This document shows, piece by piece, positions 2,565-54,292 of a stretch of 64,000 nucleotides of DNA (within the stretch, counting starts at the first letter, position 1; each line of letters begins with the position of its first letter). The notes under the pieces were generated by a model, which worked only from the letters and a program-made list of their open reading frames with translations, did no database searches and was not told the DNA's origin. The stretch spans positions 42 through 64,041 of the forward strand of contig JAEWRE010000043.1 of NCBI GenBank assembly GCA_023460235.1. Reading direction: 5' to 3'. The DNA comes from Bacillota bacterium. Lineage in GTDB: Bacteria > Bacillota > Clostridia > TANB77 > CAG-465. The position numbers and the translations under genes are program-made.

Positions 2565-2575
2565 ACGGAGGAAAT

Positions 2576-3628
2576 ATGAAAAAAGGAATTTCTTTGATAG
2601 CATTACTTACTACAGTTGCTATAATAATTATTCTTGTTACTGCTGTATCTGTTTCAGGTGCTAAAACATTAAACGACTCAAAGAAAATACAATTTGCTTC
2701 TGAGATTGCATATATTCAAGAATTAGTTAATTCATATAAAGCTAAAAATGGTAACTATCCTATAAGTGACGAATATACATTTTCAACTCTTAATGTTGAA
2801 CCAAGTGCATTAACTGAGCAATTTAAAGATGAAACACTAAATGAAAATAATATTAAACTATATAAGGTTAGTACAGAACTAATTGGTGCAAATGAACTAA
2901 AATATGGAAATTTGAAAATTCCTGAGGATGTATATCTATTATCTAAAGATACAGGAAGAGTGTACTATGCTAATAGCGTTTTAATAGATAAAAAATACTA
3001 TTATACATTAACTGATGATCTCAAGAAAATAATAAACTATACAGCAGTAAATGATGAAGTGAATGCTAATGCTGTGGTTTTTGAATATCCTAATACTGAA
3101 TGGACTAATGTTCCACTTAATTTAAATATAAAGATACCAGCTAGTTATATAAATGTTAATGTAAATATAGCTAAAGAAACCGGAAATGCTAGTGTTTCTA
3201 GTACTAAAACTGAAAACAATTATAATATATATGAGATTAGAAATATGCAGGAAAATTATATAGTTCATGTATCATATAAAGAAAATGATTCAGTACAAAC
3301 TGTTCAAGTAAAGACTTTTAGCGTGTCGAATTTTGATAAAATAGCACCTACATACAAAGTTAGTAATGTGAAAACTGTTATTGACCCATCAACTTCAAAA
3401 CAGTATAGATATATAGATATAAGTGAAATAAATGATAATTTAAGTGGAGTAAAAAGCATAAAGTATGAAAATAATAAAATAGAAGATGGAAATGTACTAG
3501 GCTATTTTACTGATAAAGGTATTGAAGTTAAGAATAATATAATAACAGTAAATGATGGAGTGTCTACAATAACATTTTTTATTGTAGATAAAGCAGGAAA
3601 TTATAAATATCAATATATTGAATTGTAA
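2576..3628 (+). CDS. Large (modular) prepilin-like protein, 350 aa: MKKG|ISLIALLTTVAIIIILV N-terminus, pilin-like core, ~200-aa C-terminal extension.
   Basis: RBS GGAGG. Paralogous to 2067 and 3642. Confidence 0.65.
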   Translation: MKKGISLIALLTTVAIIIILVTAVSVSGAKTLNDSKKIQFASEIAYIQELVNSYKAKNGNYPISDEYTFSTLNVEPSALTEQFKDETLNENNIKLYKVSTELIGANELKYGNLKIPEDVYLLSKDTGRVYYANSVLIDKKYYYTLTDDLKKIINYTAVNDEVNANAVVFEYPNTEWTNVPLNLNIKIPASYINVNVNIAKETGNASVSSTKTENNYNIYEIRNMQENYIVHVSYKENDSVQTVQVKTFSVSNFDKIAPTYKVSNVKTVIDPSTSKQYRYIDISEINDNLSGVKSIKYENNKIEDGNVLGYFTDKGIEVKNNIITVNDGVSTITFFIVDKAGNYKYQYIEL

Positions 3629-3641
3629 AGAGGTGAATTAA

Positions 3642-4697
3642 TTGAAAAAAGGTATAACATTAGTATCAGTATTAATAGCAGTAGCGGTAATTTTTATCCT
3701 TGTTACTTCAATAACAATATCTGGAATTTCAACAGTAAATAACTCAAAAAAAATGTCACTTTCATCTGAAATTGCAATGTTAAAAAATGCTTCCGATTCA
3801 TATAAAATAAAAAATGATGGAGAATATCCTATATCAGATGCTTTACTACTTGATGTGTCAAATGTTAGTAGTAATTCAATTAATCAATTCTCAGATGAAA
3901 CTATTGAAGATAATAAAATACTTCTTTATCAAATTGATTATAACAAAATAAGTGTTGGTGATTTGAAATATGGTAAATTAAAAAATGGTGATAATGATAC
4001 ATATGTGATTTCTAAAAAAACTGGTAAAGTGTATTATGCAAAGGGAATAGAAATTGGCGGTGTTACTTATTTTTATATTCAAAACAATTCTGAAGAATTA
4101 TTAAATAATGATAAGAACATTACCAATCCAGCTATTATATTTGAACAAAGTAATATTAAACCAACAAATGAAGATGTAACTATTAAGATAAAAGTGCCTG
4201 TTAATTATATTGTACAAGATGTAGCAGTAGAGAATAATATTATTACACAAAGCACCACTGAATCAACATATAACATATATGAATATACAGTTTCAGCAAA
4301 TTGTACAATTTCAGTAAAATATAAAATAACTTCAAATGATCAAGTTATTGAAACAAAGTATAATCTAACAAATATTGATAAAGTACCGCCAGTTTTGACG
4401 GTTCAAGATGCTTCACAAACATTAACACAAAATAGTAATGGAGAAAATATTGCATTTTTTACATTTACCCAGAAAATGGATGCTAATAGTGGATTAGAAG
4501 TGGTAAAATTTGTTAATTATAAAGTTGAAAAGGATATAGATAAATTTTTTGAAAACAATGGTACAAAAGTCACTGGTGATAAAATAAGTATAGGTAAGGG
4601 CGTTAGAGTAATAACTGTATATGCTAGAGATAAGGCAGGAAATGGGGCAGTTTTATATGTAAATGTTCTATCTTCAATTTATGATGCATTAATATAA
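3642..4697 (+). CDS. Large (modular) prepilin-like protein, 351 aa: MKKG|ITLVSVLIAVAVIFILV; paralog of 2576.
   Basis: TTG start with RBS AGAGGTG. Same architecture as 2576. Confidence 0.6.
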   Translation: MKKGITLVSVLIAVAVIFILVTSITISGISTVNNSKKMSLSSEIAMLKNASDSYKIKNDGEYPISDALLLDVSNVSSNSINQFSDETIEDNKILLYQIDYNKISVGDLKYGKLKNGDNDTYVISKKTGKVYYAKGIEIGGVTYFYIQNNSEELLNNDKNITNPAIIFEQSNIKPTNEDVTIKIKVPVNYIVQDVAVENNIITQSTTESTYNIYEYTVSANCTISVKYKITSNDQVIETKYNLTNIDKVPPVLTVQDASQTLTQNSNGENIAFFTFTQKMDANSGLEVVKFVNYKVEKDIDKFFENNGTKVTGDKISIGKGVRVITVYARDKAGNGAVLYVNVLSSIYDALI

Positions 4698-11628: not shown

Positions 11629-13299
11629 ATGGCGAGTTGTCTTGGAATATATTCTAATCAAGATTTTGTAAAATATGCAAAAGTTTCAATAGATTCAAAT
11701 AAAGAATTCAAAGTAGAAGCATATGGAACAAGATTTGTTAGTAATAATGACAGAAAAATATTAATAAGCAATATAATTGATGAAACTAACTCAAAAGATT
11801 TGCCAATAATAATAAACCCTGAATTTGATAAATTCATAGATGTACAGGTTTACGAACAAGCAAAAAGTAAAGCATATATAGATGATGTAATTAGAATGGA
11901 ATTTGAAGCTTGGTGTGAAAAAAACAAAACCGAACCTTCAAAATTTTCATATGTTTATGCTTTATCTGACTATAAAACAACTGAAAATAAGTATAGTGGT
12001 ATAATAAATATAACTGAGGATACTGAAATACGTAATTTAAATGATGCTGTTGGACAAAACTTAACTTCAATAGTGCCATCTGAATTAACACTTCATAAAG
12101 TTGTGCCACAAGACTATGAAAATTATGTATTAGTAAATCTTGATGATAAACTTTCAATATCAACAATTATAAATAAAAAATTAGCTGAAATTAAGACTTA
12201 TGATGTGGGTATGGAGCAAATATTTTCTGATCTTAGATTAAGATTAGGTTCTTATCAAAAAGCATATGAGGCTTGTAAACAAGTCAACGTATATACTGAG
12301 GGTAAGTCTCAAAATGATCCAACTATAGAAGTATTAACTGAGCAAACTTTACAAGAAGTATTAAAGTATGTTTTAGTAATGGTAAATAAAAACAGAAAAG
12401 ATATAACTAAAGTACTTATAACTGGTAGTGGTACTGTATTTACAAATATAGATATACTATTTACTGAATTCTTAGACATGAAGAGTGAGATTTTAAAGCC
12501 TGAATTTTTAGTTAATTCTGGTAGTATTAAGAATCTTGCTGAAGTACTTGAAACTATACATGCTATTTCACTTGCTTGTAATTATTTAAAACCAGATCAT
12601 TCTCAAATAGACTATGTTGGTAAAAAAATGGCAAGTAAATTCTCATTAGAAACATTACTTTCAGTATTTAAAAAGAAAGATCCTAGTGAACTTCCACGTA
12701 AAGTTAAATTTGATAAGCCAAAGGCAGATAATAACAAATCAAATGAGGGTGCTCAAAATAAAAATGTTATTTACGCTTTTGATTTTGAAAAGTTTAGCAA
12801 ATATGCTATAAATGGTGTAATAGTTATAGCTGTTATATTAGTAACTTATATTGTATTTAACATATTCTATTCAAATAATATAAACAAGATGCTTACTGCT
12901 ATAGCGGATCAAGATACAAAAGTATCTTCTAAAATATCTGAAGTTAACAATGATATTAGTTATATAAATTCTAATGTATCACAATATAAGACTATAAACA
13001 CTCAAGTATCTGATTTAGTAACTCAGATTGAAACTGGTTCATTAGGTAAAATAACTACATATAATGTTGCTAGTTTTTTACAACAAGTTATAAAAATAAT
13101 ACCAAAGACAATACAACTTAAATCAATAAGTTCAGATGATAATAAAAATGTGAAAATTTCAGCACAATCATCAAGCTATGCAGACCTTGGTTACTTTGTA
13201 GCACAATTAAAGCTAGAAGGAGTATTAAATTCTGTAAAAATAAATAGCATACAAAATGGTGAGACAATTTTAGTAGAGATTGGTGGTGAGTTACCGTAA
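11629..13299 (+). CDS. pilMN: Fused PilM-PilN-like T4P assembly protein: actin-like ATPase domain (~330 aa) plus C-terminal TM and periplasmic coiled-coil PilN-like part.
   Basis: RBS AAGGGAG. N-terminus 'CLGIYSNQDFVKYA' resembles the PilM 'GxDIGSxxIK' motif. TM helix at aa ~395-420. Heads a T4P gene block. Confidence 0.6.
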   Translation: MASCLGIYSNQDFVKYAKVSIDSNKEFKVEAYGTRFVSNNDRKILISNIIDETNSKDLPIIINPEFDKFIDVQVYEQAKSKAYIDDVIRMEFEAWCEKNKTEPSKFSYVYALSDYKTTENKYSGIINITEDTEIRNLNDAVGQNLTSIVPSELTLHKVVPQDYENYVLVNLDDKLSISTIINKKLAEIKTYDVGMEQIFSDLRLRLGSYQKAYEACKQVNVYTEGKSQNDPTIEVLTEQTLQEVLKYVLVMVNKNRKDITKVLITGSGTVFTNIDILFTEFLDMKSEILKPEFLVNSGSIKNLAEVLETIHAISLACNYLKPDHSQIDYVGKKMASKFSLETLLSVFKKKDPSELPRKVKFDKPKADNNKSNEGAQNKNVIYAFDFEKFSKYAINGVIVIAVILVTYIVFNIFYSNNINKMLTAIADQDTKVSSKISEVNNDISYINSNVSQYKTINTQVSDLVTQIETGSLGKITTYNVASFLQQVIKIIPKTIQLKSISSDDNKNVKISAQSSSYADLGYFVAQLKLEGVLNSVKINSIQNGETILVEIGGELP

Positions 13300-14099
13300 T
13301 GCAAAGAGATTTAGTTAAATTTATAGTTAGTACAGTTATATTAGTAGCTTTAATTGCGGTAATAGTATTTTCATTAATAAGTGGTATTGATTTAGGTTTT
13401 GCAAAAATATCATCTTTTAGTGGTTTACAACAACAACATGATAATATTTCTACAAAACAAACATCATTATCTCAAAAGGAAACTTCATATAAAACAACGC
13501 TTCAAAATCTTGAAAATGCAAAAACAGAGTATTCTAAAGAAAAAGCGAAGTATGAAGCAATAAGTAATGAAACTATAAACATGATAAAAGAAGCCACAAC
13601 TGAAGAAAAATATACTTTAGAGTATATGTGGATAAGACTTGGAAATTATGCTAAAATACATAACTTATCTATACTTTTAGTTGAACCAGGTGGAAGTTCT
13701 ACAAGTACGACAACAGGCGGTGCAGGCACACCTACAGGTACAACAGGTACTGGAACAAGCACAGGCACAGGCACTGGAACACCTACTGGAACTAATACTT
13801 CTACAGGAACTGGTACTAATGCTACTACTGGAACAAGCACAGGTACAGGTACACCAACTGGTACTACTGGTACTACTGGTACTAATACAACAGGCACACC
13901 ATCTGGAAACACAACAACTGCTTCTGATGTCTTAAGAATTGAAATTACAGGTAGTTATCTAAATGTTTCTGATTTCATATTTGATGTAGAAAATGATAAA
14001 GAACTTAGATTTAAACTTGACAATATAACAATGGAACTTGTTTCTGGTACAACAATAAAAACAACATTTAATGTAAAAAATATGGTTATTAACAAATAA
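13299..14099 (+). CDS. pilO: PilO-like T4P assembly membrane protein (N-terminal TM, coiled coil) with an internal ~80-aa Thr/Gly-rich low-complexity tract.
   Basis: Position after pilMN; topology; TG-rich tract at 13681-13920. Confidence 0.5.
   Translation: MQRDLVKFIVSTVILVALIAVIVFSLISGIDLGFAKISSFSGLQQQHDNISTKQTSLSQKETSYKTTLQNLENAKTEYSKEKAKYEAISNETINMIKEATTEEKYTLEYMWIRLGNYAKIHNLSILLVEPGGSSTSTTTGGAGTPTGTTGTGTSTGTGTGTPTGTNTSTGTGTNATTGTSTGTGTPTGTTGTTGTNTTGTPSGNTTTASDVLRIEITGSYLNVSDFIFDVENDKELRFKLDNITMELVSGTTIKTTFNVKNMVINK
13681..13920 (+). repeat. Low-complexity coding repeat (GTxGTx encoded by acwggwac-type DNA).
   Basis: Seen directly. It also creates long spurious ORFs on both strands (13646-13912 minus, 13681-13935 plus). 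Confidence 0.8.
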
Positions 14100-14116: not shown

Positions 14117-14521
14117 ATGAAAAAATCATATATTATAACCTTTAGTATATCTGTTATAGTAATGTTTTCGGTAGCAATTATATTTCTTATGTTAATGTTA
14201 CCACAAAACGTCAATATAGTAGATTCTGAAGCAACAAAATATCAACAAATAGCAAAGACAGATTATACGTTTAATAAAACTAAAGATGTAAGCCAAGAAA
14301 GTTTACAAAAAGAATATTCAATTACATCTTCACAAATTGAGTCATTTGCTAAGAAAAATCAATATAAAGCAGGAAACTCTGATCCTTTCACAGCAGCTGG
14401 TACTAATACCAATAATGGAAACGCTAACAATGGTAATACTAATAATGGTGGTACTACACCTGATGAGGAAACAACAAATAGTAATGGTGGAACACCAAAC
14501 CCACCATCAGCGAATAAATAA
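14117..14521 (+). CDS. Small membrane-anchored T4P-associated protein (N-terminal TM, N/G/T-rich C-terminus); a PilP-like role is possible.
   Basis: RBS AAAGGAG; context between pilO and the pilins. Confidence 0.4.
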   Translation: MKKSYIITFSISVIVMFSVAIIFLMLMLPQNVNIVDSEATKYQQIAKTDYTFNKTKDVSQESLQKEYSITSSQIESFAKKNQYKAGNSDPFTAAGTNTNNGNANNGNTNNGGTTPDEETTNSNGGTPNPPSANK

Positions 14522-14535: not shown

Positions 14536-15018
14536 TTGAAAATTTCAAAAGATAAATTCGTAATAATCATATTACTTATAATAGTTATAATACTTTCAGT
14601 AATTTTAGTTATAAAATCACGAAATACATTTTCTGGAAGTACTACAAAAACATTTTTAAGTGATATTACAAATATACAAAGTAAATTATCTTATTATATA
14701 GGTTCAACATATTCTGAAACTTTTGGTGTTTATACTAATGTGGAAATCATAACAGGAACTAGTGAAAAAACAAGTTCTAAATCTAATTTAGAAAACATCA
14801 AACCAATTGTAGATACTAGTTCTAAAAAAGAAAAAAATAGTAAAGTATATTATAAATTAAATTCAGATGTTGTTAAACAAATATTAAAGATAAATTTGCC
14901 TACATATGATGGGATTGAATGGTATATTCAAGATGGACAGTATTTAAAAGTAAACTTTGAAAAACAACCATCTTGGTGGAATGACAGCCTAAACACATAT
15001 ATGGTAGGCAACAACTAA
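14536..15018 (+). CDS. Membrane-anchored protein (N-terminal TM MKISKDKFVIIILLIIVIILSVILVI with no Gly cleavage site); a minor pilin-like or assembly protein is possible.
   Basis: TTG start with RBS AAGGAG; 160 aa. Confidence 0.4.
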   Translation: MKISKDKFVIIILLIIVIILSVILVIKSRNTFSGSTTKTFLSDITNIQSKLSYYIGSTYSETFGVYTNVEIITGTSEKTSSKSNLENIKPIVDTSSKKEKNSKVYYKLNSDVVKQILKINLPTYDGIEWYIQDGQYLKVNFEKQPSWWNDSLNTYMVGNN

Positions 15019-15083: not shown

Positions 15084-15623
15084 ATGAAAGCAAAAAAAGG
15101 TATTTCTTTAATCGTATTAGTTATAACTATAATTGTTATAATTATCCTTGCTGGTGCAGTTATTTTGAACATGACTAAAAATAATCCAATGGATTCAGCA
15201 AAAGTAGCAAAATTGGTTCAACAAAGGGATTCATTAGAATCAGCTACATTGCTTTATGCTCAACAAATAATGGCAGCAACTCAAGGTGAATATGGTTTAT
15301 CAGACATTTTACAAGGCAATGCAGTAAAATCAGCAGCAGGAGTAACACCAGTAGTTAAATATACTGGTATAACAACTGGAACTGCACTTACAAATGTTAC
15401 TGGTGCATCTACAACAGCTACATTTAAAGTTGCTGATTCTACTGTAACAAAAGACACTATAGATTTTGCTTTACCAGAATCAGGTGTTTCTGGTGCATAT
15501 TGGGCTGTTGATACAGCAAGTGGAAAATTCTATTTAGTAGTTCCAGCAGCTACAACAAATCCAACATGGTTAGATCTTACAAATCAATCATTAGCAGCAT
15601 TTGTTGTTAAATTAGCATCTTAA
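15084..15623 (+). CDS. pilA: Probable major pilin (prepilin MKAKKG|ISLIVLVITIIVIIILAG; 179 aa, Ala/Thr/Gly-rich, no Cys).
   Basis: Strong RBS TAAGGAGG. Higher-expression-like codon usage and locally higher GC than neighbours. Located before the pilD-like and pilB genes. Confidence 0.6.
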   Translation: MKAKKGISLIVLVITIIVIIILAGAVILNMTKNNPMDSAKVAKLVQQRDSLESATLLYAQQIMAATQGEYGLSDILQGNAVKSAAGVTPVVKYTGITTGTALTNVTGASTTATFKVADSTVTKDTIDFALPESGVSGAYWAVDTASGKFYLVVPAATTNPTWLDLTNQSLAAFVVKLAS

Positions 15624-15665
15624 TTAAATACGTAATTTAAAATTTAATACGATTAGAAAAGGTCT

Positions 15666-15694
15666 GGACATATATGCAACATGTGTATATGTCC
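15666..15694 (+). other. Stem-loop GGACATATA-11nt-TATATGTCC just downstream of the major pilin gene; possible partial terminator.
   Basis: Perfect 9-bp inverted repeat; no clean T-run. Confidence 0.4.
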
Positions 15695-15769
15695 TTACCA
15701 ATATATATTTTAGAGTACATATATTGTGTATTGTAAAATGTATATTTAAGCTTTAAGAAGGGGGAGACA

Positions 15770-16588
15770 ATGACACTTTTTCTAAATATATTTGTTATAT
15801 TTTGTATATTTGTAATTGGAAGTTTATTTGGTAGCTTTTATTCGCTTGCTACATATAGGATTCCTCAAAAACAAGATATTGTTGCAACTAGATCATATTG
15901 TCCAAATTGTAAACACAGATTAGAATTCTTTGATTTAATACCTGTACTTAGCTTCATTTTATGTGGTGGTAAGTGCAGATATTGTCATGATAAAATAAGT
16001 CCAAGATATTTTTTACTTGAAGTAGGACATGGATTGTTATTCGTGGCTATCTATTTGATTTTAACTGTATTCTTTGGAATTTCTATTGAAGCTCTTGTAA
16101 TATTTATGTGTATAGCAATTATGTATTCAGTTATATTTGTAATAATTGGATCAAATATAATGGCAAAAAAAATGAATATTTATAAAAAGAGTGAAAAAGC
16201 TAATTCTAAAAAGGGTGTATTTATATCTGAGTTAGTTATTGCATCAATATTATTTACAATACTTCTTACAACTTCTTTTATTGTGGCAAGAAATTATACA
16301 AATAAAGCAAATAACAGCATAATAAGAGCTAATGCAGTATCTGTTGGAATTAAAAATGCAGAAATTGCACTTAGTACTAAATATGATAGTCTTACTACAT
16401 TTACAAATGTTGAAACTGTGGAAAACATACAGTATACAACGACTGTATCTGTGAATAAATATTCTGATGAAAATTCTTTAAAAGAAGATTTTGTAAAGAA
16501 AATAACTGTTAGCGTAAAATATAATATATCTGGCGAAGAATATGAATTTAAATTTGATACTTTGAAAGGTAGGTCTGCTGTAACATGA
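15770..16588 (+). CDS. PilD N-terminal (Zn-ribbon/TM 'DiS_P_DiS'-like) domain fused in-frame to a pilin-like module (KKG|VFISELVIASILF, which does have Glu+5). No peptidase A24 catalytic domain is present.
   Basis: RBS GGGGGAG. 'GSLFGSFYSLATYRIP' and 'CPNCKH...CGGKCRYC' align to the PilD N-terminus. There are no membrane Asp residues and no GGGD-type motif afterwards. The junction lies across an A8 tract (16165-16172), with an in-frame ATG at 16172. Confidence 0.55.
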   Translation: MTLFLNIFVIFCIFVIGSLFGSFYSLATYRIPQKQDIVATRSYCPNCKHRLEFFDLIPVLSFILCGGKCRYCHDKISPRYFLLEVGHGLLFVAIYLILTVFFGISIEALVIFMCIAIMYSVIFVIIGSNIMAKKMNIYKKSEKANSKKGVFISELVIASILFTILLTTSFIVARNYTNKANNSIIRANAVSVGIKNAEIALSTKYDSLTTFTNVETVENIQYTTTVSVNKYSDENSLKEDFVKKITVSVKYNISGEEYEFKFDTLKGRSAVT

Positions 16589-17064
16589 AAAAAAATAAAT
16601 CTGGTATGACTATGATTTCAATAGTTTTATATGTAACATTATTTTTTACACTTTCTGTTTTTGTTATTGCAATGAGTACAAATATGAATACAAATGCCTT
16701 ATCTGAAAAAGGTGATATAATAATTAATGAAGATTTACAAAAAATTCAGTATAATTTAGTGAAAAGTTGTAAAGAAAGTGATAAAATAGATATAATAGAA
16801 AATAAGATAGTATTTTCGAATAATGATGAATACTACTTTAATACTGAAAAAAAGATATTGTATAAAAATGATACAGTTATCTCAAAGAATGTACAAGAAT
16901 TTTCTATTGTGAATTTAACAGATTTATCTGGAATATCATCTACTCAAATAACAAATATTGATACTAAAATTCAAAATTTAACTGTTAAATTTGATATAAA
17001 AAAATATAACAAGGAAAAAAGTTCAACAATATTTTTATCATTAGGAGCTGGTTTATATGAATAA
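16585..17064 (+). CDS. Prepilin-like (pseudopilin) protein, 159 aa (MKKNKSG|MTMISIVLYVTLFFTLSVFVIA).
   Basis: Class III-like N-terminus; ATG overlaps the upstream stop. Confidence 0.5.
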   Translation: MKKNKSGMTMISIVLYVTLFFTLSVFVIAMSTNMNTNALSEKGDIIINEDLQKIQYNLVKSCKESDKIDIIENKIVFSNNDEYYFNTEKKILYKNDTVISKNVQEFSIVNLTDLSGISSTQITNIDTKIQNLTVKFDIKKYNKEKSSTIFLSLGAGLYE

Positions 17065-17272
17065 GAAAAAACTAAGAGGTTCTGGAATATTAGTTGTTAT
17101 ACTATCTTCAGTAGCATTTTATATTTATGCAATGTCAACATTTAGTGAACAAGAATATTTTGGAATATTACAAGATAGATATGAAAAAGATATAGTTAGA
17201 GAATATGAAAAAAACGTAAACAATATAGATGATTTCTATGATAATGTCGTAAATATATATAACAATATGTAA
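17057..17272 (+). CDS. Small prepilin-like protein, 71 aa (MNKKKLRGSG|ILVVILSSVAFYIYA).
   Basis: Class III-like N-terminus; overlaps the upstream gene by 8 nt. Confidence 0.4.
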   Translation: MNKKKLRGSGILVVILSSVAFYIYAMSTFSEQEYFGILQDRYEKDIVREYEKNVNNIDDFYDNVVNIYNNM

Positions 17273-17289: not shown

Positions 17290-18927
17290 ATGTTTGAAAA
17301 TATTAAATCGAAAAAAAATCCAATAGGTGTTGAGTTTATAAAAAGGGGACTACTTACAGATAGTCAAGTAGACAGAGTACTACAATATCAAAAAGAGCAT
17401 AAGGAATTAAAGTTTGCTGAAATAGTTGATATACTAGATATGTGTGATAAATCACAATTGCTTGAGACTTTAGCTGATAAAGTTGGTATAACTCCTGTAA
17501 CACTAGATGGAGATATAACTGTAAATCCAGTAAAATACATCCCAAGAGATATGATTATAAATTATAAGGTTATGCCTTTTGATATTGATGGAAATACTTT
17601 AAAAGTAGCGTTTTCTGATCCACAAGATGTTGATAAAGTAAAAGAAATAGAGCTTTTACTTATGAATGCCGGATACAATATGGAAGTATATATAACTTTA
17701 TATACAGCTATTATGAAGCAAATAGAGCAAATAAGAACAGTTGATAGTAAGTTTGTTGATAAAGAAGAAAAAGATGTTACAAAACTAATAGATAATATAA
17801 TTATGACTGCTATACAAAAAAGAGCCAGTGATATTCATATTGAACCTATGGAAGATAAAGTAAGAATCAGATTTAGAATTGATGGTGAATTAATTACTAT
17901 AACTGAGCTTCCAAAAAATAGACAAGATATCGTAACAGGAAGACTTAAATCGATTTCAAATATGTATCAAGAAATTACTTATGATCAAGATGGAAGTATA
18001 AACACTTACGAAAATTTCAGTATCCGTGTATCAAGTCAAAAAAATGTTAACGGAGAAAAATTTGTACTTAGATTATTAAGAAAAAATACTGAAGCAAAAA
18101 ATTTATTTGAACTTGGATTTGAAAATGATGATGAACTAGTTGCAAAAGCTTTTGATAAAAGAAATAGTATAGTTCTTGTATGTGCACCAACTGGAGAAGG
18201 TAAAACTACAACTTTATATAGTGTAATTGAATATCTTGATAAGCCTCAAATTAATATAATATCAATTGAAAACCCAGTTGAAAGAAGATTAAAAGGTGTA
18301 AATCAGGTAGAAATAGGACCAAATATTAGTTTTGACTCTGCACTTAGAACAGTTCTAAGACAAGATCCAGATATTGTTCTTGTTGGAGAAATAAGAGATG
18401 TTGAGACTGCTAAAATTGCTATAGAAGCAGGACAAACAGGACATTTAGTTTTAAGTACAATACATACAATTGATTCAATTGAGGCTATTACAAGAATAAG
18501 AAAAATGGGTATATCAGATTACGATGTATCAGCTACACTTGTAACATCAATATCACAAAGACTTGTTAGAAAGCTATGTAATAAGTGTAAAAAACCACAT
18601 GAAATTACAGAAGATGAAAAAAGGTATATTGAAAGAGTTACAAAAATAACTGGACAAGAATTTGATTTAGAAAGTGCACAAATGTATGAACCTGTTGGTT
18701 GTAAATACTGCAATGATATCGGGTATTATGAAAGAATTGCATTATTTGAAGTGTTATGCGTAGATGATTACTTAAAAGATATGATTTCAGACGGAAAATC
18801 TACAATTGATATTCGTAAATATGCAATTGAAAATACAGGATATAGACCACTAATTGCAGATGGTGTAAAAAAAGTATTAGAAGGCATTACAACAATTGAT
18901 GAGCTAAAGAGAAAAATAACATTATAA
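17290..18927 (+). CDS. pilB: T4P/T2SS assembly ATPase of the PilB/GspE family (N-terminal GSPII_E_N-like domain, Walker A 'APTGEGKTTTLY', tetracysteine CxxC...CxxC).
   Basis: RBS GAGGAGG; motifs read directly; 545 aa. Confidence 0.85.
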   Translation: MFENIKSKKNPIGVEFIKRGLLTDSQVDRVLQYQKEHKELKFAEIVDILDMCDKSQLLETLADKVGITPVTLDGDITVNPVKYIPRDMIINYKVMPFDIDGNTLKVAFSDPQDVDKVKEIELLLMNAGYNMEVYITLYTAIMKQIEQIRTVDSKFVDKEEKDVTKLIDNIIMTAIQKRASDIHIEPMEDKVRIRFRIDGELITITELPKNRQDIVTGRLKSISNMYQEITYDQDGSINTYENFSIRVSSQKNVNGEKFVLRLLRKNTEAKNLFELGFENDDELVAKAFDKRNSIVLVCAPTGEGKTTTLYSVIEYLDKPQINIISIENPVERRLKGVNQVEIGPNISFDSALRTVLRQDPDIVLVGEIRDVETAKIAIEAGQTGHLVLSTIHTIDSIEAITRIRKMGISDYDVSATLVTSISQRLVRKLCNKCKKPHEITEDEKRYIERVTKITGQEFDLESAQMYEPVGCKYCNDIGYYERIALFEVLCVDDYLKDMISDGKSTIDIRKYAIENTGYRPLIADGVKKVLEGITTIDELKRKITL

Positions 18928-18943: not shown

Positions 18944-20041
18944 ATGGATTTAATATATTTAATAATAGATAAGGCAATTAGTTTAGATGCAACAGATATT
19001 CACTTAGCACCAGGCCTTGTTCCAGTTTATAGAATAAGTAGAAAATTATTTTTTGATGAAACTAAACTTCCACTTGATGAAGTTATATTAAATCAATTTT
19101 TAGACTATTTTTATGAAAAGAATAAAGGGTTAAAAGAAAAATTTGAATTAAAGAAGCAAGCTGACTTTTCTTATTCATATAAAGAAACAAGATTTAGAAT
19201 AAATGTATCAATAACAAAAGGAATACCAACATTTTCTATTAGAATAATACCAAATGGAGAGATAAAAGCTGATTCTCTAGGACTAAAAGATATTATTAGA
19301 AAAGTTCAAAGAGTTCATTCTGGGCTTGTATTAATTACAGGTAAGGTAAACTCAGGTAAATCAACTACAATGAATGCATTTTTACAAGAAGTAAATAGAA
19401 CAGAAAATAAAAAAATAGTAACTTTAGAAGATCCAATTGAGTATGAACATACTTCTCAAAAATCTATTGTAATTCAAAAAGAAATTGGAGAACAATCAGA
19501 TGTTATAAATTTTAATGCAGGACTTGTAAACTTATTAAGAGAAGATGCTGATATTACAGTTCTTGGAGAAATAAGAGACAGAAAAACAATGGATGTTGCA
19601 ATAGATCTTGCTGAATCTGGCGGACTTGTTATTGGAACATTACATACACGTTCTTGTGGTGAAACAATAGAAAGAATAATAAATATGTATGATCCAGGTG
19701 AACAAATGGCAATAAAAAATTCAATATCTTCAGTGCTTAAAATAGTTGTATCTCAAAAACTACTTGTTAGTACTAAAAATACACTAATACTTGTTCCTGA
19801 AATAATGGTTGTAAATAATACAATTGAAGCTCAAATAAGACAAGAAAAGTTTAGTGTATCTGATATAGAAGATTCAATTCATACACAAAAGGAAAATGGA
19901 TGTGTAAGTTATGAAAGCTCATTTGCTGATATGTATGCAAAAGGTCTACTTGATATGGCAACAGTTGTGGAAAATGTTGATCCTAACAGACTTAGTATAA
20001 TAAAAAATCTAATTGTAAGTTACGGTGGAGAAGTAACTTAA
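18944..20041 (+). CDS. pilT: Twitching/retraction ATPase of the PilT family (Walker A 'GKVNSGKSTT'; 365 aa).
   Basis: RBS AAGGGAG; size and motifs. Confidence 0.75.
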   Translation: MDLIYLIIDKAISLDATDIHLAPGLVPVYRISRKLFFDETKLPLDEVILNQFLDYFYEKNKGLKEKFELKKQADFSYSYKETRFRINVSITKGIPTFSIRIIPNGEIKADSLGLKDIIRKVQRVHSGLVLITGKVNSGKSTTMNAFLQEVNRTENKKIVTLEDPIEYEHTSQKSIVIQKEIGEQSDVINFNAGLVNLLREDADITVLGEIRDRKTMDVAIDLAESGGLVIGTLHTRSCGETIERIINMYDPGEQMAIKNSISSVLKIVVSQKLLVSTKNTLILVPEIMVVNNTIEAQIRQEKFSVSDIEDSIHTQKENGCVSYESSFADMYAKGLLDMATVVENVDPNRLSIIKNLIVSYGGEVT

Positions 20042-20073: not shown

Positions 20074-21411
20074 ATGCCAAATTACAAATATAGGGTCATT
20101 TTTGAAGACGGAAGAATTGGAAGAGGAAAAATAATTGCATCAAGTAGAATAAGTGCTATAGAAAAACTGAAAATGGAAAAAAATCAGCCTATTATGATAA
20201 AGAGAATGGGCGGAGAAAAGACTAAATATAATACAAGAGTTGACTATAGTAAATTAAAGAAACCTACCGTTGAAAGAAGAAAAAAGAAGAATAGACCAAA
20301 AATCAATATAATGAAATTAACTCTTGATGACCTAAAAAAATTGGACTTGCACCCTTTCGCAAGAGTAAAAACAAAAGATATTGTAACATTTGTAAACAAT
20401 ATATATATATTAAAAAAAGCAAAATTTAATAACGTTCAAGCATTAGAAGCTGTTTATCAAGGAACTGAAAATCCTGCATTTAAAGATATAGTTGAAGATT
20501 TATTAATTGGAGTTCAATCTGGTGAAAAATTAAACACTATAATGGAAGGCTATCCAAAAGTTTTTCCACCGATGTTTGTAAACTTTGTTAGGGTTGGAGA
20601 AGAGTCTGGTAATTTAGATACTGCTTTACTATATGCAAGAGATTATGTTGAATCATCTCAAAAATTAAATAAAAGAATAAAAGCAGCAATAATTCCTAGG
20701 GTATTACAATTTGTTGGTATAATGATTGCAATGTTTGTTGCGCTTATAATAGGTGTACCAATACTAAAAGATGTATATACGATGTTTGGTTCTGAGCAAG
20801 AAATTCCAAAAGCGACTATGATTGGATTTTCTATTGCAGAATGGTTAATAGCAAATTGGTATGTACCAACCATTATAATTGCATTGCTTGTTGGAGCATT
20901 TATATTTTATATTCGTACTCCAAGAGGCAGATATAATTGGGACAAATTCTTAGTCACAGGACCTGTAGTTGGTAAATTAATAGACAATATAATAGTTAGT
21001 AACTTCTTTCAAGCGATGTTACTAAACTTAAAAAATGGTATGAGAATTCAAGAAAGTCTTGAAGTATCTAAAAATGTAACTAACAATTATTATTTTCTAT
21101 CTGCAGTAGAAGCAGGTAAGGTAAACATACAATCAGGTGAATCGTGGATAGAACCATTTGATGAAAAGAATCTTTTTAAACCTATGGTATCAGAAATGTT
21201 AAACATAGGTATGAAAACTGAACTTTCTGAAATGATGGATAAAGTAAATGAATATATTAAGACAGAAATTGATGAGTCTCTTGCAAAATTTGTAAAAGTA
21301 CTACCAGATATTACTTATTTATTTGTTGGTATTGCAATGATAGCATTAGTTATTACAGTTGTAGTTCCACTTACAAATGTATATATGGGAGGATTTATTT
21401 CACTACAATAA
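20074..21411 (+). CDS. pilC: T4P platform protein of the PilC/GspF family (cytoplasmic N-terminal domains plus 3 TM segments).
   Basis: RBS AGGAGGTG; 445 aa; GspF-like topology. Confidence 0.75.
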   Translation: MPNYKYRVIFEDGRIGRGKIIASSRISAIEKLKMEKNQPIMIKRMGGEKTKYNTRVDYSKLKKPTVERRKKKNRPKINIMKLTLDDLKKLDLHPFARVKTKDIVTFVNNIYILKKAKFNNVQALEAVYQGTENPAFKDIVEDLLIGVQSGEKLNTIMEGYPKVFPPMFVNFVRVGEESGNLDTALLYARDYVESSQKLNKRIKAAIIPRVLQFVGIMIAMFVALIIGVPILKDVYTMFGSEQEIPKATMIGFSIAEWLIANWYVPTIIIALLVGAFIFYIRTPRGRYNWDKFLVTGPVVGKLIDNIIVSNFFQAMLLNLKNGMRIQESLEVSKNVTNNYYFLSAVEAGKVNIQSGESWIEPFDEKNLFKPMVSEMLNIGMKTELSEMMDKVNEYIKTEIDESLAKFVKVLPDITYLFVGIAMIALVITVVVPLTNVYMGGFISLQ

Positions 21412-25006: not shown

Positions 25007-25183
25007 CAGACCGCAATACAAAAAAATAGTTTGTTAATATGAAGAAATTATTACACTTAATAACAAATATTTATATATTTTAACAAAATAATATATAAAG
25101 TATCAAAAATGTATAAAAAAGTATTGAAAAATGTTTTTGTTGATGTTAATCTATAATTATATAACTATGAGGTGTTTTTTTGT

Positions 25184-27916
25184 ATGAACAATATTAATAA
25201 AAAGATTGTGGCTCAACATAATATTACTTTAAAAAGTGGAATTTCACTTATAACATTGATAATCACTATAATTGTGATTATTATTCTTACATCTGTTATC
25301 TTAATATCCTTAAATCAAAGTAGCATCATGGCAAATGCAAAAGATGCCGTAATAGAAAATAATTTTTCGACAATACAGGAAGAGATAGAATATTATAAGT
25401 TAAATAAATATTATTCTGATCATACTACACTTGATCTATATCCACTGGAAAAAGATGAGGATGGAAATTATATCACTATGGATAATTTACCAGAAGAAAC
25501 TAAAAATAATTTACCAATGGAATTAAAGATGAATTTATATGATACTGAAAAGCATGAATTAGAGACATATAATAATCTTCCAGATATTAGTTATTTAGAC
25601 TACAAGAAATTTTATAAAATAGATACAAGTCTTTTAACTACAGCAGGAGCTTATGGTCAAGATTTATACATATATATATATGATTTAAAATATGTAGTAT
25701 TTAATATAAGCGGTATAAAATACAAAGGTAATACTGAATACAGTATTATACCTCTTGGAGGAGGAGGTAGTCCAGAATATATAGCACTTACAAATAATAC
25801 ATTTAGACTTGATACTGATGGTAATTTAAAAGTTCTTGGACAAATAAATTCAATAACTGGTGAAACCTCAGATGAATACAAAAAGTATAGTGGAATTAGA
25901 GAGTTTACTATACCTTCAGTGATTGAGAATCCTAGTGAAGTAAAAAAAGTATATTTTTCTTTAGGTACAGCATATGTAATCGATAAAGATGATAATTTAT
26001 GGGCATGGGGAAATAATCCATATAATAAGCTTGGGCTTGGAAACTCATTTACAATAACTGTCCCAAATAAGATAAATGAAAATATAAAAGTGAACAATGA
26101 AAGTATAAAAGTAAAAAATGTTTGGGCTGGTGTATCAAACACATGGATAGTGGATACAGAAAATAGGGTATGGGCTTGTGGAAGTAATACGAGCGGATCA
26201 TTTGGAATAGGAAATACTAATTACTATTCTGGATATATAAGAGTGGACAACTTAGATGGATCTAAAGTAAAAGAAATTATGCCTAATTTAAGTGATTCAA
26301 GGTATACTTTTGTGTTATATGATGATGGACGAGTTTTTGCATCTGGTTCTAATACATATGGAATTTTTGGTAAAAATAATACTACAAGTATTAAAACTTT
26401 TGAAGAATTAACAAGCTTCTATGGTGCAAAGAAAATTTTAGCAGGAGGAAATAGGACTACATTTATACTTAAAGATAATGGAGAACTTTATGGAGTTGGA
26501 AGTAATGTATTTGGAGGTCTAGGACTGCCAATAAGTGATAATACACTATATACAATTCCAGTAAAAATTGCATATAATGTTTCAGATATAAGCTATGTTG
26601 AATACTGGAGAGGAAGTGTGCGATATAAAACTGTAGATGGTGATATATATCAATCAGGTGTATTAAAATATGATAATTTAGGAGCACCACTATATGATCA
26701 ATACTTTAGAATGATAAATAATATTAATGATGTAGATTTATCTTTTGATTCAAATGAACTACTAATATCTAAAGGAAAGTTATATACAGTATTATATAAT
26801 TCTCAAGATGATCAATTGACAGCTACGGAGTATTCTACTTCATATTCAAATGTATCAAGTACGGAATCCTTTTATGGGATGAAGATTTTTAAGGCATCTG
26901 GAAAGCTGTATTTGGATTCATATCCAGATATAACTGCTGCAGGAAGTAGAGTAAGATTAACTCTAAAGAATGTATTTACAGGAGCTAAATTTGTACAAGG
27001 CGCAACAAATAATATAAGTATTGTAGATAAAAATTCTAATATATGGGAGAGTTTAACAAATAAAAATACTCAACTTTCGAATGTTAAGAAAATAATTTCT
27101 TCTAATACAGCCAAGTTTGCTCTTTTAAAAAATGGTGAACTCTATGCAAAAGGCGCTTCAACTACAGGTGGATGGGGAGATGCACTCGTAAAAACTAGTT
27201 ATACATTAATTACTAAAGATGGAACAACTCCTTTTAGTGTAAAAGATGTATATACATCAGTATATGGTAACAGTGCTATTTTCCTTACAAATGATAATGA
27301 ATTATATTGGTTTGGACATGATGCACATATATATCTACCTAATAAAGAAAATGGAGATATATTATATAATGACGGAAATTATGTTACAAAATATCCACAT
27401 AAAATAAATACTTTAGGATTAGATACTAATGTATTAACTAATATTGCTGATATAGTATATGATGTTAACTGGTCAGATTTTTATTCAAGAATTACATATG
27501 TATTAACAAATAGTGGAGAATTATATGTAACTGGAGATAGTTCCAAAACTACAGGACTTGGTAGTACTAGTACTAAATTTACCAAGATAACAGCATTTGG
27601 AAATGCAAAAGTAAAATCAATAAAATCATATCAAGGATGTACAATCGCATTGCTAGAAGATGGTAAAGTGTATGCCTGGGGATACAATACATATGGACAA
27701 TTTGGAGGTGGATATGTAATAGGAAATACCTATACAACACCACAAAGATTAAATATAAGCACTAACATAATAAAAATAACTTTAGGTGATGGATTTGCAC
27801 TTTTCTTAGCAAATGATGGAACTGTATATGGCAGTGGAAGAAATGAATATGGGCAACTTGGAAATGGTACTAATGTATCTATTGAAGGTTTTACGGAATG
27901 TAAGGAACTTGAATAA
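25184..27916 (+). CDS. Giant modular prepilin-like protein: class III-like signal (…NITLKSG|ISLITLIITIIVIIILTS) followed by a ~880-aa domain with at least 6 RCC1-like repeats (WGxNxxGQLGxG).
   Basis: ATG at 25184 with RBS GAGGTG 9 nt upstream. RCC1 signature repeated (AWGNNPYNKLGLGN, WACGSNTSGSFGIGN, YAWGYNTYGQFGGG, YGSGRNEYGQLGNG and others). Confidence 0.65.
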   Translation: MNNINKKIVAQHNITLKSGISLITLIITIIVIIILTSVILISLNQSSIMANAKDAVIENNFSTIQEEIEYYKLNKYYSDHTTLDLYPLEKDEDGNYITMDNLPEETKNNLPMELKMNLYDTEKHELETYNNLPDISYLDYKKFYKIDTSLLTTAGAYGQDLYIYIYDLKYVVFNISGIKYKGNTEYSIIPLGGGGSPEYIALTNNTFRLDTDGNLKVLGQINSITGETSDEYKKYSGIREFTIPSVIENPSEVKKVYFSLGTAYVIDKDDNLWAWGNNPYNKLGLGNSFTITVPNKINENIKVNNESIKVKNVWAGVSNTWIVDTENRVWACGSNTSGSFGIGNTNYYSGYIRVDNLDGSKVKEIMPNLSDSRYTFVLYDDGRVFASGSNTYGIFGKNNTTSIKTFEELTSFYGAKKILAGGNRTTFILKDNGELYGVGSNVFGGLGLPISDNTLYTIPVKIAYNVSDISYVEYWRGSVRYKTVDGDIYQSGVLKYDNLGAPLYDQYFRMINNINDVDLSFDSNELLISKGKLYTVLYNSQDDQLTATEYSTSYSNVSSTESFYGMKIFKASGKLYLDSYPDITAAGSRVRLTLKNVFTGAKFVQGATNNISIVDKNSNIWESLTNKNTQLSNVKKIISSNTAKFALLKNGELYAKGASTTGGWGDALVKTSYTLITKDGTTPFSVKDVYTSVYGNSAIFLTNDNELYWFGHDAHIYLPNKENGDILYNDGNYVTKYPHKINTLGLDTNVLTNIADIVYDVNWSDFYSRITYVLTNSGELYVTGDSSKTTGLGSTSTKFTKITAFGNAKVKSIKSYQGCTIALLEDGKVYAWGYNTYGQFGGGYVIGNTYTTPQRLNISTNIIKITLGDGFALFLANDGTVYGSGRNEYGQLGNGTNVSIEGFTECKELE

Positions 27917-28005: not shown

Positions 28006-30516
28006 TTAATCATTTTTCTTTATTGAAGGTGTTTCATAACTCTCTGTTATAGCTCCACCGGTTACAGCCGCATCATCTAAAGTAATATCATCATCAATTA
28101 CTATTTCAAAATCATCAAGATTTCCATTTGTTCCAACAATATCTCTATTTGCAAATACTTCTGACTCTTCTACTTCTGAGCCTTTTATTGGAGAAGTTCC
28201 AGGAAAATTACTTAAATTTTCTGATAATTTTGAAGATGTATTCACACCAAATAAAAAGTCATCTTTTTTGCTATCATCATCATTTATAGCTATTGTAGGT
28301 GTATCAGGTTTTGACATCATATACTTTTCAAAGTTGTACATTAAAGTATCAGCTTTTTCTTTATATTTTGAATCTAGGAATGTAACTTTTCCTTTTCCGT
28401 AAACTGTTTTACCTTTTGCATTCTTTGTTTTGTAGAAAATATCACCAAAACCTTGATCAGCAAGTTTGAACCATTCCATTCGAAATTTCTTTTCTTTTGT
28501 AAGAGTAGGGGTTGCAACTACATCTTTTGTTATATCAAATTTATAAGAAAAGTCTGGTATTTTTTCTTTACCAAAGGCTTTCTCCCAATATTCACTATCA
28601 TCTGGAACAGTATCACCAAAAACAATTTGAGTCTTTGTGTTTGCAAGAACAGTCTGTCTATAGTATGAAGTACCACTTTTCTCTAATTGTGATAAGTTTT
28701 GTAAAGCTATTGTAACGCCACATCTATACTTTCTAAATAGTGTAAACATTACTTCCATATCTTTTGTTATATATTCTGGGAACTCATCAATATATAAGAA
28801 ATGAGGAGTTCTTGAATCTTCATTACCTTTTCTTCTTAGTACTGCATCTTGGAATTGAAGTATAAAGAACATACCAAAAGCTTTTGCTTGAAGTATACCT
28901 AAATCACCTTTTCTAGAACATGCAGTAATTACTTGACCTGTTTCTAAAGCTTTATCAAAATCTATTATATTTTTCTTTCCACAAAGTGCTGCTTTTAAAC
29001 CAGGGTGTCTTATAAGGTTATTTAACTGAGTAATAGCTCCATATAGGAATTTCTCAGTATCTTTTCTACCACTTCCACGAGTACCTGGTATTTCATAACC
29101 ATTGATATTTAATGAAGGCTTGTAGAAATTCTTTTCAAAATATCTAATTAATAATTTATATTTTTGTTCAAGTTCTGGTACTTTCTTCATTTCTTCTGTC
29201 ATTTCTTCAACTGCATCAAAATTATATAATAGTTCTAGCATATCTTCTAAACTTGCAAGTTCACCATTATTAAGTAGAGGATACATTTCTTTTAATAATA
29301 TTGAAAGGTTTTGGAAAGCATCAATTGTAACTTGTGTAAAGAATGGATCTCCAGCTTTTCCACCACCAGTACTTTCATACATGGCATTTAAAACGTCTGA
29401 TACAATTGAAGCAACTTTAGCAGGATCCGGTATTGCAAATGGATTCATACTAAGTGTTGTTTCAGGAGCTGCTGGATCTATAGATAATACATCTAAATCA
29501 AAGTTTTTTGCCACTCCTACAAATTGAGAAATAAAGTTCCCATCATTTTCTATTACTGTTATACCTAAGTTCCTATAAACGACTTTTCCTGTTGAATTGT
29601 CAATATATTGAACTAAAGGTTTTATATTTTTCATGAATTCTTCTTCCATGCCACGTCTAGGCTTCAAATAGTTTAAAGAAAAATTCCTGTTTACAAATTC
29701 ATTTGTAAAAGGTCCACTCATATAAGCAATATCTTTTTTTAGCATTGAGTATGCCATTCTTTTTGAATATTCTCTAAAGAAGAATTTCTTCTCTAGGTCA
29801 AAAGCACTCATCGGTAATAATACAGTTGCAGTTTTACCAGTACCAGTAGCACCTTGTACTAATGTTGCTTCATAACGTTTCTTTTCAGGAACTATAACGG
29901 GTAATGATGAACCTTTTACTTTACAAATTACAGCTTCACAAGTAAATGCGCCATTTTCTTTTACGCCTGTAGATGAAGTCATACCAGAAAATGCTGCTAT
30001 AGATTTTACATCATCATCATCTCTCATTAAAGAAAGTACATATTCAATAACTCTAAATATTCCAATAAATGGAACTACGAAGCAAAGCGATCTAACAGCA
30101 GGAGCAAATAGTTCAGGATATAGTCTTAATACATCTTTATAGTTTGGAAGTTGTTCAAGTATCCACCAAATTCCATTATTTACCCACGTACATACCATTC
30201 CACCAAGTATTGTAGTAAATAATCCAAATGTTACAAAGTATACATTTACTTTTGTAGAATCGTCCTTTGGAATTCCAGAATTAACGTAAAAAGAAAATGC
30301 AAGAACTGGAAAGAACATAAATATAGCATATAAATATGGAGGAATATTATTTATAACTCTTAAATTTCCAACCATCAGACCAAGTATTTTTGATATCGAA
30401 ATAAGCATAACAAATGCTGTTAAAGCATAAAAGATATATGTTAATATTCTATCTGGTTTAGTCTTTATATGTAGTTTTTTAAATAAACTATCGATCAAAT
30501 ATATCACCACTTTCAA
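28006..30516 (-). CDS. Type IV coupling protein of the VirD4/TraG/TraD family (N-terminal TM helices, Walker A 'GATGTGKT', Walker B 'LYIDEF', TraG-D_C-like 'TIALQNLSQL').
   Basis: Motifs read directly; 836 aa. The start is uncertain (TTG without an obvious RBS). Confidence 0.6.
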   Translation of the reverse strand: MKVVIYLIDSLFKKLHIKTKPDRILTYIFYALTAFVMLISISKILGLMVGNLRVINNIPPYLYAIFMFFPVLAFSFYVNSGIPKDDSTKVNVYFVTFGLFTTILGGMVCTWVNNGIWWILEQLPNYKDVLRLYPELFAPAVRSLCFVVPFIGIFRVIEYVLSLMRDDDDVKSIAAFSGMTSSTGVKENGAFTCEAVICKVKGSSLPVIVPEKKRYEATLVQGATGTGKTATVLLPMSAFDLEKKFFFREYSKRMAYSMLKKDIAYMSGPFTNEFVNRNFSLNYLKPRRGMEEEFMKNIKPLVQYIDNSTGKVVYRNLGITVIENDGNFISQFVGVAKNFDLDVLSIDPAAPETTLSMNPFAIPDPAKVASIVSDVLNAMYESTGGGKAGDPFFTQVTIDAFQNLSILLKEMYPLLNNGELASLEDMLELLYNFDAVEEMTEEMKKVPELEQKYKLLIRYFEKNFYKPSLNINGYEIPGTRGSGRKDTEKFLYGAITQLNNLIRHPGLKAALCGKKNIIDFDKALETGQVITACSRKGDLGILQAKAFGMFFILQFQDAVLRRKGNEDSRTPHFLYIDEFPEYITKDMEVMFTLFRKYRCGVTIALQNLSQLEKSGTSYYRQTVLANTKTQIVFGDTVPDDSEYWEKAFGKEKIPDFSYKFDITKDVVATPTLTKEKKFRMEWFKLADQGFGDIFYKTKNAKGKTVYGKGKVTFLDSKYKEKADTLMYNFEKYMMSKPDTPTIAINDDDSKKDDFLFGVNTSSKLSENLSNFPGTSPIKGSEVEESEVFANRDIVGTNGNLDDFEIVIDDDITLDDAAVTGGAITESYETPSIKKND

Positions 30517-53923: not shown

Positions 53924-54292
53924 ATGAAAAAATCGAAAAAAATTATGTTAAGAATATTACCAGTTATGCTTTTATTAGTTATGGTTGTCGCTGGCAATGT
54001 ATTTGCTGCAAGTAGCCCTATAAATACAAATTTGGTTACTGGAACAAATAATGTTGGTACTCTTGATACTACAGTAAAAAAAGTTTGGAACTCAATTGCT
54101 TTAATTCTTCAAATACTTGCAATAGCTGCTGTTGTATTTGCTGGTGTTAGATATATGTTCTCATCTGCAGATGCTAAAGCTGATATAAAGAAAAGTATGG
54201 GAATATTAGCTGTTGGCGCTATACTTGTATTTGGTGCTACAACTATAATTAACTTCATAGTTACTTTAACAGAGGATGTAGTTAATAAGTAA
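53924..54292 (+). CDS. VirB2/TrbC-like conjugative pilin candidate: signal peptide plus two hydrophobic helices joined by 'RYMFSSADAKADIKKS'.
   Basis: RBS AAGGAGG; architecture and size (122 aa). Confidence 0.5.
   Translation: MKKSKKIMLRILPVMLLLVMVVAGNVFAASSPINTNLVTGTNNVGTLDTTVKKVWNSIALILQILAIAAVVFAGVRYMFSSADAKADIKKSMGILAVGAILVFGATTIINFIVTLTEDVVNK

Follow-up and report, generated by a model that had tools for sequence, protein, structure and literature searches.

How a type IV pilus (T4P) operon comes to carry a gene that begins as a prepilin peptidase and ends as a prepilin, and what such a protein might do, is the question raised by the stretch of Bacillota DNA analysed here, a window of 64,000 nucleotides (64 kb; contig JAEWRE010000043.1 of assembly GCA_023460235.1) with a GC content of 26.9%. 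The gene in question, at 15770..16588 of the window and, like the other parts of its operon given with coordinates below, on the plus strand, is a single open reading frame (ORF) of 272 aa in which the methylase module of PilD is followed by a linker and a GspI-like pilin. It is preceded by a GGGGGAG Shine-Dalgarno sequence (15760-15766) that was graded strong. We consider it nearly certain that the fusion is real, conserved and derived from a decayed PilD joined to the next gene. As to how it works, the best overall explanation, to which we would give about an even chance, is a maintained gene fusion that is cleaved in trans and then acted on by its own tethered methylase module.

The original prediction, made from the DNA sequence without database searches, held that the N-terminal part of the ORF is the N-terminal domain of PilD, that the catalytic A24 part is missing and that the frame continues into a genuine pilin with Glu at +5, and all three points are borne out. 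The only Pfam match in the ORF was PF06750 (A24_N_bact; residues 15-96, E 1.8e-29; 15812..16057), which takes in part of transmembrane helix (TM) 1, a C4 zinc-finger loop on the cytoplasmic side and the beginning of TM2. The zinc site, identified in alignments, reads C44-x2-C47-x21-C69-x2-C72 with Gly67-Lys68 beside the third Cys (15899..15985). In alignments of 31 and 110 members the four Cys residues and G67-K68 are invariant or nearly so, as are G127, K147, G149 and E154. Both the CxxC-X21-CxxC spacing and a Gly plus a basic residue before the third Cys are required for N-methylation by PilD (PMC3584216) and, judged by its sequence, the N-terminal half appears to retain every known determinant of the PilD methyltransferase (PMC3584216, PMC10191384).

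The protease half is a different matter. PF01478 (Peptidase_A24) gave no match in the fusion ORF in a Pfam scan, even at E<=10, and custom A24 hidden Markov models (HMMs) gave none at E<=1; an NCBIfam scan of the fusion returned nothing relevant. TM2 (residues 78-102) and TM3 (residues 106-134), which together occupy 16001..16171, are helices in the AlphaFold model, and TM3 is recognizable from its sequence as the first helix of the former A24 domain, G127 being the Gly of 'GID'. The position of the first catalytic Asp is occupied by N129, according to motif comparison and to the alignment of a sister-clade protein with canonical PilD (hhalign/hmmalign), and across the fusion family this position is variable (Y16, D7, N5 and others in 50 members). 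Measured against a prepilin peptidase, the protein has the C4 zinc A24_N domain and lacks the A24 domain, the catalytic Asp pair with GxGD and the ~8 TM helices; the region expected to hold GxGD is absent, and residues 150-272 fold as a pilin instead.

Between the two halves lies a Lys-rich, cytoplasmic linker (residues 132-149; 16163..16216) with 7 Lys against 1 Glu and a pLDDT of 59-73. Across the family the linker ranges from ~14 to 50 aa, and the segment from TM3 to K147 is free in both length and sequence. From M135 onward the protein reads MNIYKKSEKANSKKG|VFISELVIASILF, where the bar marks the predicted cut. The linker ends in the core of a class III signal peptide, K147-K-G149|V150-F-I-S-E154 (16208..16231), as defined by the family alignment. 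Among 50 members, G149 is present in 50/50, K147 in 49/50 and an acidic residue at +5 in 50/50 (E45, D5), and the core is likewise invariant across 110 clusters. The helix that follows starts as in pilins (KKG149|VFISE154LVIASILFTILLTTSFIV), with the Gly at -1, the ~21 hydrophobic residues and the Glu5 of the class III motif. What is unusual is the leader: instead of 6-26 aa, 149 residues with three TM helices precede the cut site, and only the last ~15 of them are leader-like. The pilin module itself (residues 150-272; 16217..16585) consists of a 53-residue alpha-1 helix and a four-stranded sheet with a GspI/EpsI/XcpV-type fold, and neither the ORF nor the isolated module was matched by Pfam T2SSI or N_methyl. 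The acidic residue at +5 sets it apart from the remaining pilin-like ORFs of the window (2067, 2576, 3642, 15084, 16585, 17057 and 25172), in which +5 is A, S, V, I or T.

The AlphaFold2 model, built from 110 sequences (pLDDT 85.3, pTM 0.71), contains helices at residues 2-30, 78-102 and 106-134, followed by the low-confidence linker, a helix at 150-202 (53 residues) and four strands, which gives a count of three TM helices plus the pilin helix; pLDDT is 83-96 over residues 161-270 of the pilin part and 78 over residues 151-160. Nine Lys/Arg residues lie in the zinc loop and seven Lys in the linker, and the turn between TM2 and TM3 is acidic. This charge distribution matches the topology of PilD, and the KKG|VF site is therefore placed in the cytoplasm and the pilin head outside, as in a prepilin; the predicted topology, with the pilin helix running from inside to outside, fits that of a prepilin exactly. 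The module very probably is the equivalent of GspI. Its fold is of the GspI type and the neighbouring gene encodes a GspJ-type partner, which together identify the fused pilin as the GspI/PilV member of a GspI-GspJ priming pair. A search of the PDB with the protein and with the family profile matched no bacterial PilD or A24_N structure and returned only chance zinc-finger matches and weak geopilin matches. Foldseek also matched the model to SAM-dependent sugar N-methyltransferases (~60-68 columns, TM score ~0.2), and these matches, for which the aligned part of the model was unclear, were not used.

The fusion is by no means confined to this contig. Of 5.8 billion proteins searched, 854 matched, and the best 120 of these matches are 255-294 aa long, show 93-100% query coverage and 45-100% identity, and carry PF06750 only. 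HMMER run over 1.84 billion representatives gave 16,201 matches at E<=0.001, practically all of them owing to the A24_N half; both halves were matched in only ~17 clusters at 50% identity, which makes this a rare architecture, confined to a single clade. Within that clade, a group of uncultured Clostridia from the gut, it is firmly established. When one genome per GTDB species was scanned, the intact, in-frame fusion turned up in 49 species-level metagenome-assembled genomes (MAGs) from human, rabbit, chicken and ruminant gut, including Clostridium sp. CAG:465 and CAG:921, and 110 aligned protein clusters at 90% identity carry it. The gene order around the fusion is identical in every examined locus. 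The ratio of non-synonymous to synonymous substitution (dN/dS) in four unsaturated pairs was 0.04-0.15 over the N-terminal part and 0.04-0.21 over the pilin, the comparison being limited to these close pairs because synonymous sites are saturated in distant AT-rich ones. Both halves of the fusion are under purifying selection.

The origin of the fusion can be read from a sister group of 29 further loci, which includes Clostridium sp. CAG:508, CAG:452 and CAG:567 and the closed 1.57 Mb MAG chromosome OZ007016.1. Here the same operon slot holds a pilD-like gene of 252-284 aa followed, often with an overlap, by a standalone minor prepilin of 131-160 aa (~300 aa in a few loci), which bears a leader of the usual kind and an Asp or Glu residue at +5 (LKSNKG|FTMQD is one example). 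The fused pilin module and these standalone pilins are homologous over their full length (hhalign probability 99%, E 5.6e-18, 128 columns). The sister pilD-like protein has PF06750 and no Pfam-detectable PF01478, and it aligns with canonical PilD through the first catalytic-Asp motif ('aGIDKe'). With an HMM of 23 nearer canonical PilDs the match extends across the entire A24 domain, the C-terminal IPxG motif included, but is weak (E 9e-8 to 1e-3). GxGD is absent; the first Asp column is D22/E6/V1, and the second is D in 10/29. It is probably a pseudo-peptidase that databases would still call PilD. In a neighbour-joining (NJ) tree of the N-terminal domain, fusion and sister groups separated from canonical PilD in 192/200 bootstraps, and the sister group was recovered in 183/200. 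In the simplest history, the PilD of the operon lost its protease active site first, an intermediate that survives in the sister clade, and the decayed A24 domain was then deleted from just after its first helix, joining the still constrained N-terminal zinc-finger module (TM1, zinc loop, TM2 and TM3) in frame to the next gene, which encoded a GspI/PilV-type minor prepilin. At the position of the first catalytic Asp, an Asp survives in 7/50 fusions, most of them deep-branching.

The two halves are also linked by an exclusive pairing. Among the other pilin-like N-termini in ~50 loci of the fusion clade, none out of 174 has an acidic residue at +5, the majority having the form KKG|ISLIV... Among the pilins of the sister clade, the 24 with an acidic +5 are all encoded directly downstream of the pilD-like gene. 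The A24_N domain is therefore always found beside, or fused to, the sole pilin with an acidic +5. In mutagenesis experiments, Gly-1 was essential for cleavage, and Glu5 was dispensable for cleavage and important for methylation and assembly (PMC4471445).

As had been claimed for the locus, no A24 peptidase domain is present in the T4P locus or anywhere in the 64 kb window, as judged by Pfam and two custom A24 HMMs; the Pfam evidence comprises records for the genes at ~4858-27900 and a scan of multi-pass membrane ORFs elsewhere, and both HMMs were run on a six-frame translation. The first HMM, built from six proteobacterial plasmid PilDs, was too shallow and missed the domain of the sister clade, and was replaced by that made from the 23 nearer canonical relatives. 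In members of the fusion family, the custom HMMs match only TM2-TM3. As a control of the method, 38/81 nearest relatives matched PF01478. Conversely, 43/81 nearest relatives of at least 240 aa are without a Pfam-detectable PF01478. Because the genes for prepilin peptidases often lie at a distance from the systems that these enzymes serve (PMC6668835), the absence of a peptidase from the locus is no evidence about the genome. TANB77, the order that includes the CAG-508 sister clade, has been reported to carry a separate Tad-like pilus cluster with CpaB, TadZ, CpaE, TadA, TadBC and seven pilin-like genes, and the description of that cluster likewise lists no prepilin peptidase (PMC11680825).

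Our data are consistent with a model in which the fusion would insert into the membrane as a prepilin, with the 149-residue methylase module in the place of the leader. A prepilin peptidase encoded elsewhere would cut at G149|V150, and the adjacent zinc-finger module would then methylate, or otherwise handle, the new Val150 N-terminus of the Glu5 pilin. The released GspI-like pilin may pair with the GspJ-like product of the next gene and so prime pilus assembly. The conservation of Gly-1 and Lys-3 beside a free linker is what a cleavage site predicts. We place this sequence of events, cleavage in trans followed by the action of the tethered methylase module, somewhat short of an even chance.

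Several explanations of the gene do without a conserved fusion protein, and the comparative data bear on each of them. That so unusual an architecture is an artefact of assembly or annotation, or a decaying pseudogene, might be suspected from the architecture alone, and an assembly error was part of what the original prediction had named as its own undoing. This was not borne out: the identical protein is recorded in 4 contigs from three sources (NCBI, ENA and Logan), which rules out an assembly artefact, and the frame intact in 49 species, the dN/dS of 0.04-0.21 and the strong Shine-Dalgarno sequence bring the probability of this explanation close to nil. A second possibility was suggested by the A8 homopolymer at 16165..16172, the last A of which does start the in-frame ATG of M135, as had been noted. 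The tract had been taken as the junction and as a candidate slippage site, at which slipped-strand phase variation would toggle between the fusion and a pilD' gene plus an independent pilin gene. In its favour, the A8 lies directly before TG, and the split state does occur. Locus L054 is one A short of an in-frame fusion in an A6 run, and there pilD' ends in a TGA that shares bases with the start codon (ATG) of a separate prepilin gene (MNNNKKLSKNSG|VFISELVV; L054 10290-10460), which has an AGAGG Shine-Dalgarno sequence upstream. In L094, a 1-nt deletion in an A-run of the linker (1530-1720) cuts the A24_N protein short and deprives the pilin part of a start codon; as its MAG is also highly fragmented, error or decay is likely. 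P0134 was considered as a second clean split form beside L054 and rejected on the same grounds: a 1-nt frameshift, a pilin that lacks a start codon and a fragmented MAG. Against a conserved switch, the fusion is in frame in 49 species and out of frame in only 2 of ~52 lineages, the identical intact protein recurs in the 4 contigs, and neither the length nor the position of the tract is conserved, the A-run at the KKM position of homologues being AAAAAGATG, AATAAGAAAATG or A7 (A7-TG). Moreover, the plus strand of the window has 16 runs of A>=8, and such runs arise in a 27% GC genome purely from Lys AAA codons. Comparison of orthologous loci thus finds the fusion kept and the A-tract not, which speaks against the tract as junction; the split gene is a rare lineage state or a sequencing error, there is no conserved switch, and phase variation is exceedingly improbable. 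It is also quite improbable that the gene gives two products, the full-length protein and a prepilin started at the internal Met135. Position 135 is Met in 43/50 members and plausibly a former pilin start codon, since sister-clade leaders resemble the linker, and the L054 pilin begins at an internal ATG, though elsewhere. However, a Shine-Dalgarno sequence precedes M135 in only 3/50 members, compared with at least 34/50 called gene starts (an underestimate, because some starts are called too far upstream). Six species have V, I, L or N at position 135 and a seventh has an alignment gap, and the equal conservation of M131 points to a structural motif (IMxxKM), not to a start codon.

The main rival concerns the fate of the protein, which might never be cut: the GspI-like module, tethered to a three-helix remnant of PilD, would then be a fixed primer, a docking site or a pseudo-substrate scaffold that, for example, holds the GspJ-like partner at the platform. 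No A24 peptidase is found in the window or any related locus, the sister operon copy is also without GxGD, so that pilin maturation may have been reorganized throughout the clade, every other pilin has dropped Glu5, and the pTM of 0.71 suggests possible packing of the two halves against each other in the model. We nevertheless hold this reading to be rather unlikely. Gly-1 is invariant and Lys-3 nearly so, right beside a linker that varies freely; in the sister clade and in L054 the same pilin is a protein of its own with a normal short leader, and the split genes of L054 imply that the pilin half is able to function like any other prepilin. The other pilins keep KKG before a hydrophobic stretch, which argues for continued peptidase activity in these cells, and in type II secretion systems (T2SS) as in T4P, subunits of the GspI type normally move out of the membrane at the tip of the filament. 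A further reading, which we think unlikely, is that these gut Clostridia with reduced genomes have no conventional A24 peptidase for this pilus and that the methylase remnant and the GspI-type subunit form a new membrane-anchored initiation module; it arises because the active site of the operon copy was gone before the halves were fused and Glu5 has disappeared from all major pilins, and, if true, A24_N would have a function independent of proteolysis. Cleavage in trans with tethered methylase action is the best explanation, yet a number of points weigh against it. No A24 domain was detected in 1.64 Mb of sequence made up of the window and ~87 related loci (<=10 kb on each side of the gene). 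We know of no experiment that shows an A24_N domain acting as a methylase without a peptidase domain, nor, to our knowledge, does a 149-residue, three-helix 'leader' have a precedent among PilD substrates. Conservation of the Gly at -1 could instead reflect a role in breaking the helix where the linker meets the membrane helix, and the split in L054 is possibly a 1-nt assembly error. Finally, the best NJ tree shows a monophyletic fusion clade, but with only 56/200 bootstraps, and a single origin is therefore likely, not proven.

The fusion gene lies within a T4P operon situated directly 3' of spoIIIA, in the order pilMN, pilO-like, two genes for small single-TM proteins, major pilin, fusion, two genes for small pilin-like proteins, pilB, pilT, pilC and secA. 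The PilM-N fusion (11629-13299), the PilO-like protein (13299-14099) and the two small single-TM proteins (14117-14521 and 14536-15018) were assigned from a faint PilN Pfam match together with conserved gene order. An insert of ~80 residues in the PilO-like protein is made up almost entirely of Thr, Gly, Ser, Pro and Asn (TGTGTSTGTGT...). The major pilin (15084..15623; 179 aa) has the N-terminus MKAKKG|ISLIVLVITIIVIII and no acidic +5; related loci have the same N-terminus, with +5 always V or S. This KKG|ISLIVLVITIIVIII stretch is almost unchanged between species that are otherwise ~50% diverged, and among bacterial pili of the PilB/PilT/PilC type a class III signal that lacks Glu5 and looks archaeal is unusual. 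The 146-nt spacer between the major pilin and fusion genes (15624..15769) folds into two strong RNA hairpins (minimum free energy -39.7 kcal/mol, z -5.2) upstream of the Shine-Dalgarno sequence of the fusion, and a consensus terminator scan of this spacer found no T-run terminator. The hairpins may act as a 3' stabilizer or as an attenuator that sets the ratio of major to minor pilin. Downstream, the start of the GspJ/XcpW-like minor pilin (16585..17064; 159 aa, no acidic +5) overlaps the stop of the fusion (ATGA), and is followed by a 71 aa pilin-like protein with the N-terminus RGSG|ILVVIL (17057..17272), the position of which is conserved in related loci. PilB (17290-18927), PilT (18944-20041) and PilC (20074-21411) were recognized by the Pfam families MshEN/T2SSE, T2SSE and T2SSF, respectively.

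Other pilus-related genes are scattered through the window. A 914 aa protein (25172-27916), a large modular pilin or an adhesin, combines a pilin-like N-terminus (KSG|ISLITLIITIIVIIIL) with RCC1/WD40_RLD beta-propeller repeats. Three more genes for pilins without Glu5 form a second cluster (2067-4697), in which two of the pilins (350 and 351 aa) have long C-terminal extensions; it lies downstream of a 502 aa protein (451-1959) composed of three near-identical repeats of ~165 aa. A conjugation or type IV secretion system-like cluster (53924-63806) includes three genes for TrbC/VirB2-type pilins (53924, 54494 and 55401), and a VirD4/TraG-type coupling protein is encoded separately on the minus strand (28006-30516).

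The literature searched held no description of a PilD-pilin fusion or of a methylase-only PilD, and within that literature the fusion would be the first PilD in nature to have the methylase half only, and one devoted to just one Glu5 pilin. The purpose of pilin N-methylation has been without an answer for more than 40 years (PMC10191384), and a methylase-only PilD that acts on one Glu5 pilin would give a direct handle on it. Across the ~80 species-level genomes examined, the zinc-finger half seems to have been kept under purifying selection and the protease half lost, a pattern that argues for A24_N as an autonomous functional module with a GspI-type initiator pilin as its critical client. There is also a practical side: database members of the family are named 'prepilin peptidase' or 'PppA' yet cannot be peptidases, and tools that score T4P systems by PilD miscount them. 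As the sister clade belongs to TANB77, an uncultured order of the human gut whose pilins are linked to immunotherapy response, one of them activating TLR4 and improving the anti-PD-1 response in mice (PMC11680825), the system is of some applied interest.

Among known systems, the closest is PilD/GspO/XcpA/ComC (MEROPS A24A), with which the fusion shares a homologous N-terminal module, the zinc site, the Gly plus basic residue and, through the pilD-like gene of the sister clade, the operon position; it differs in having no aspartic-protease domain, three TM helices rather than ~8 and a covalently attached pilin. The peptidase-only enzymes TadV/CpaA and archaeal FlaK/PibD are its mirror image, with a protease and no methylase domain where the fusion has a methylase domain and no protease. 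They show that the two activities of PilD are separable in nature, and, by analogy, an enzyme of the TadV/CpaA or FlaK/PibD type is a plausible candidate for the peptidase acting in trans. From GspI/EpsI/XcpV, the PilV equivalent that nucleates the GspI-J-K tip complex, the fused pilin differs by the lack of a sequence-family match, by Val at +1 and by its membrane 'leader' of 149 residues. The pilD-like gene and standalone Asp5 prepilin of the sister clade occupy the same slot, consist of homologous halves and show the same exclusive pairing with an acidic +5, but they are two genes, and in the pilD-like protein the A24 domain is still of full length, though diverged and devoid of GxGD. Lastly, modular type IV pilins such as PilB and PilC of Streptococcus sanguinis also unite a pilin and an extra domain in one polypeptide; whereas their extra domain is C-terminal and displayed on the pilus, that of the fusion is N-terminal to the cut site, embedded in the membrane and facing the cytoplasm, and would be lost from the mature pilin.

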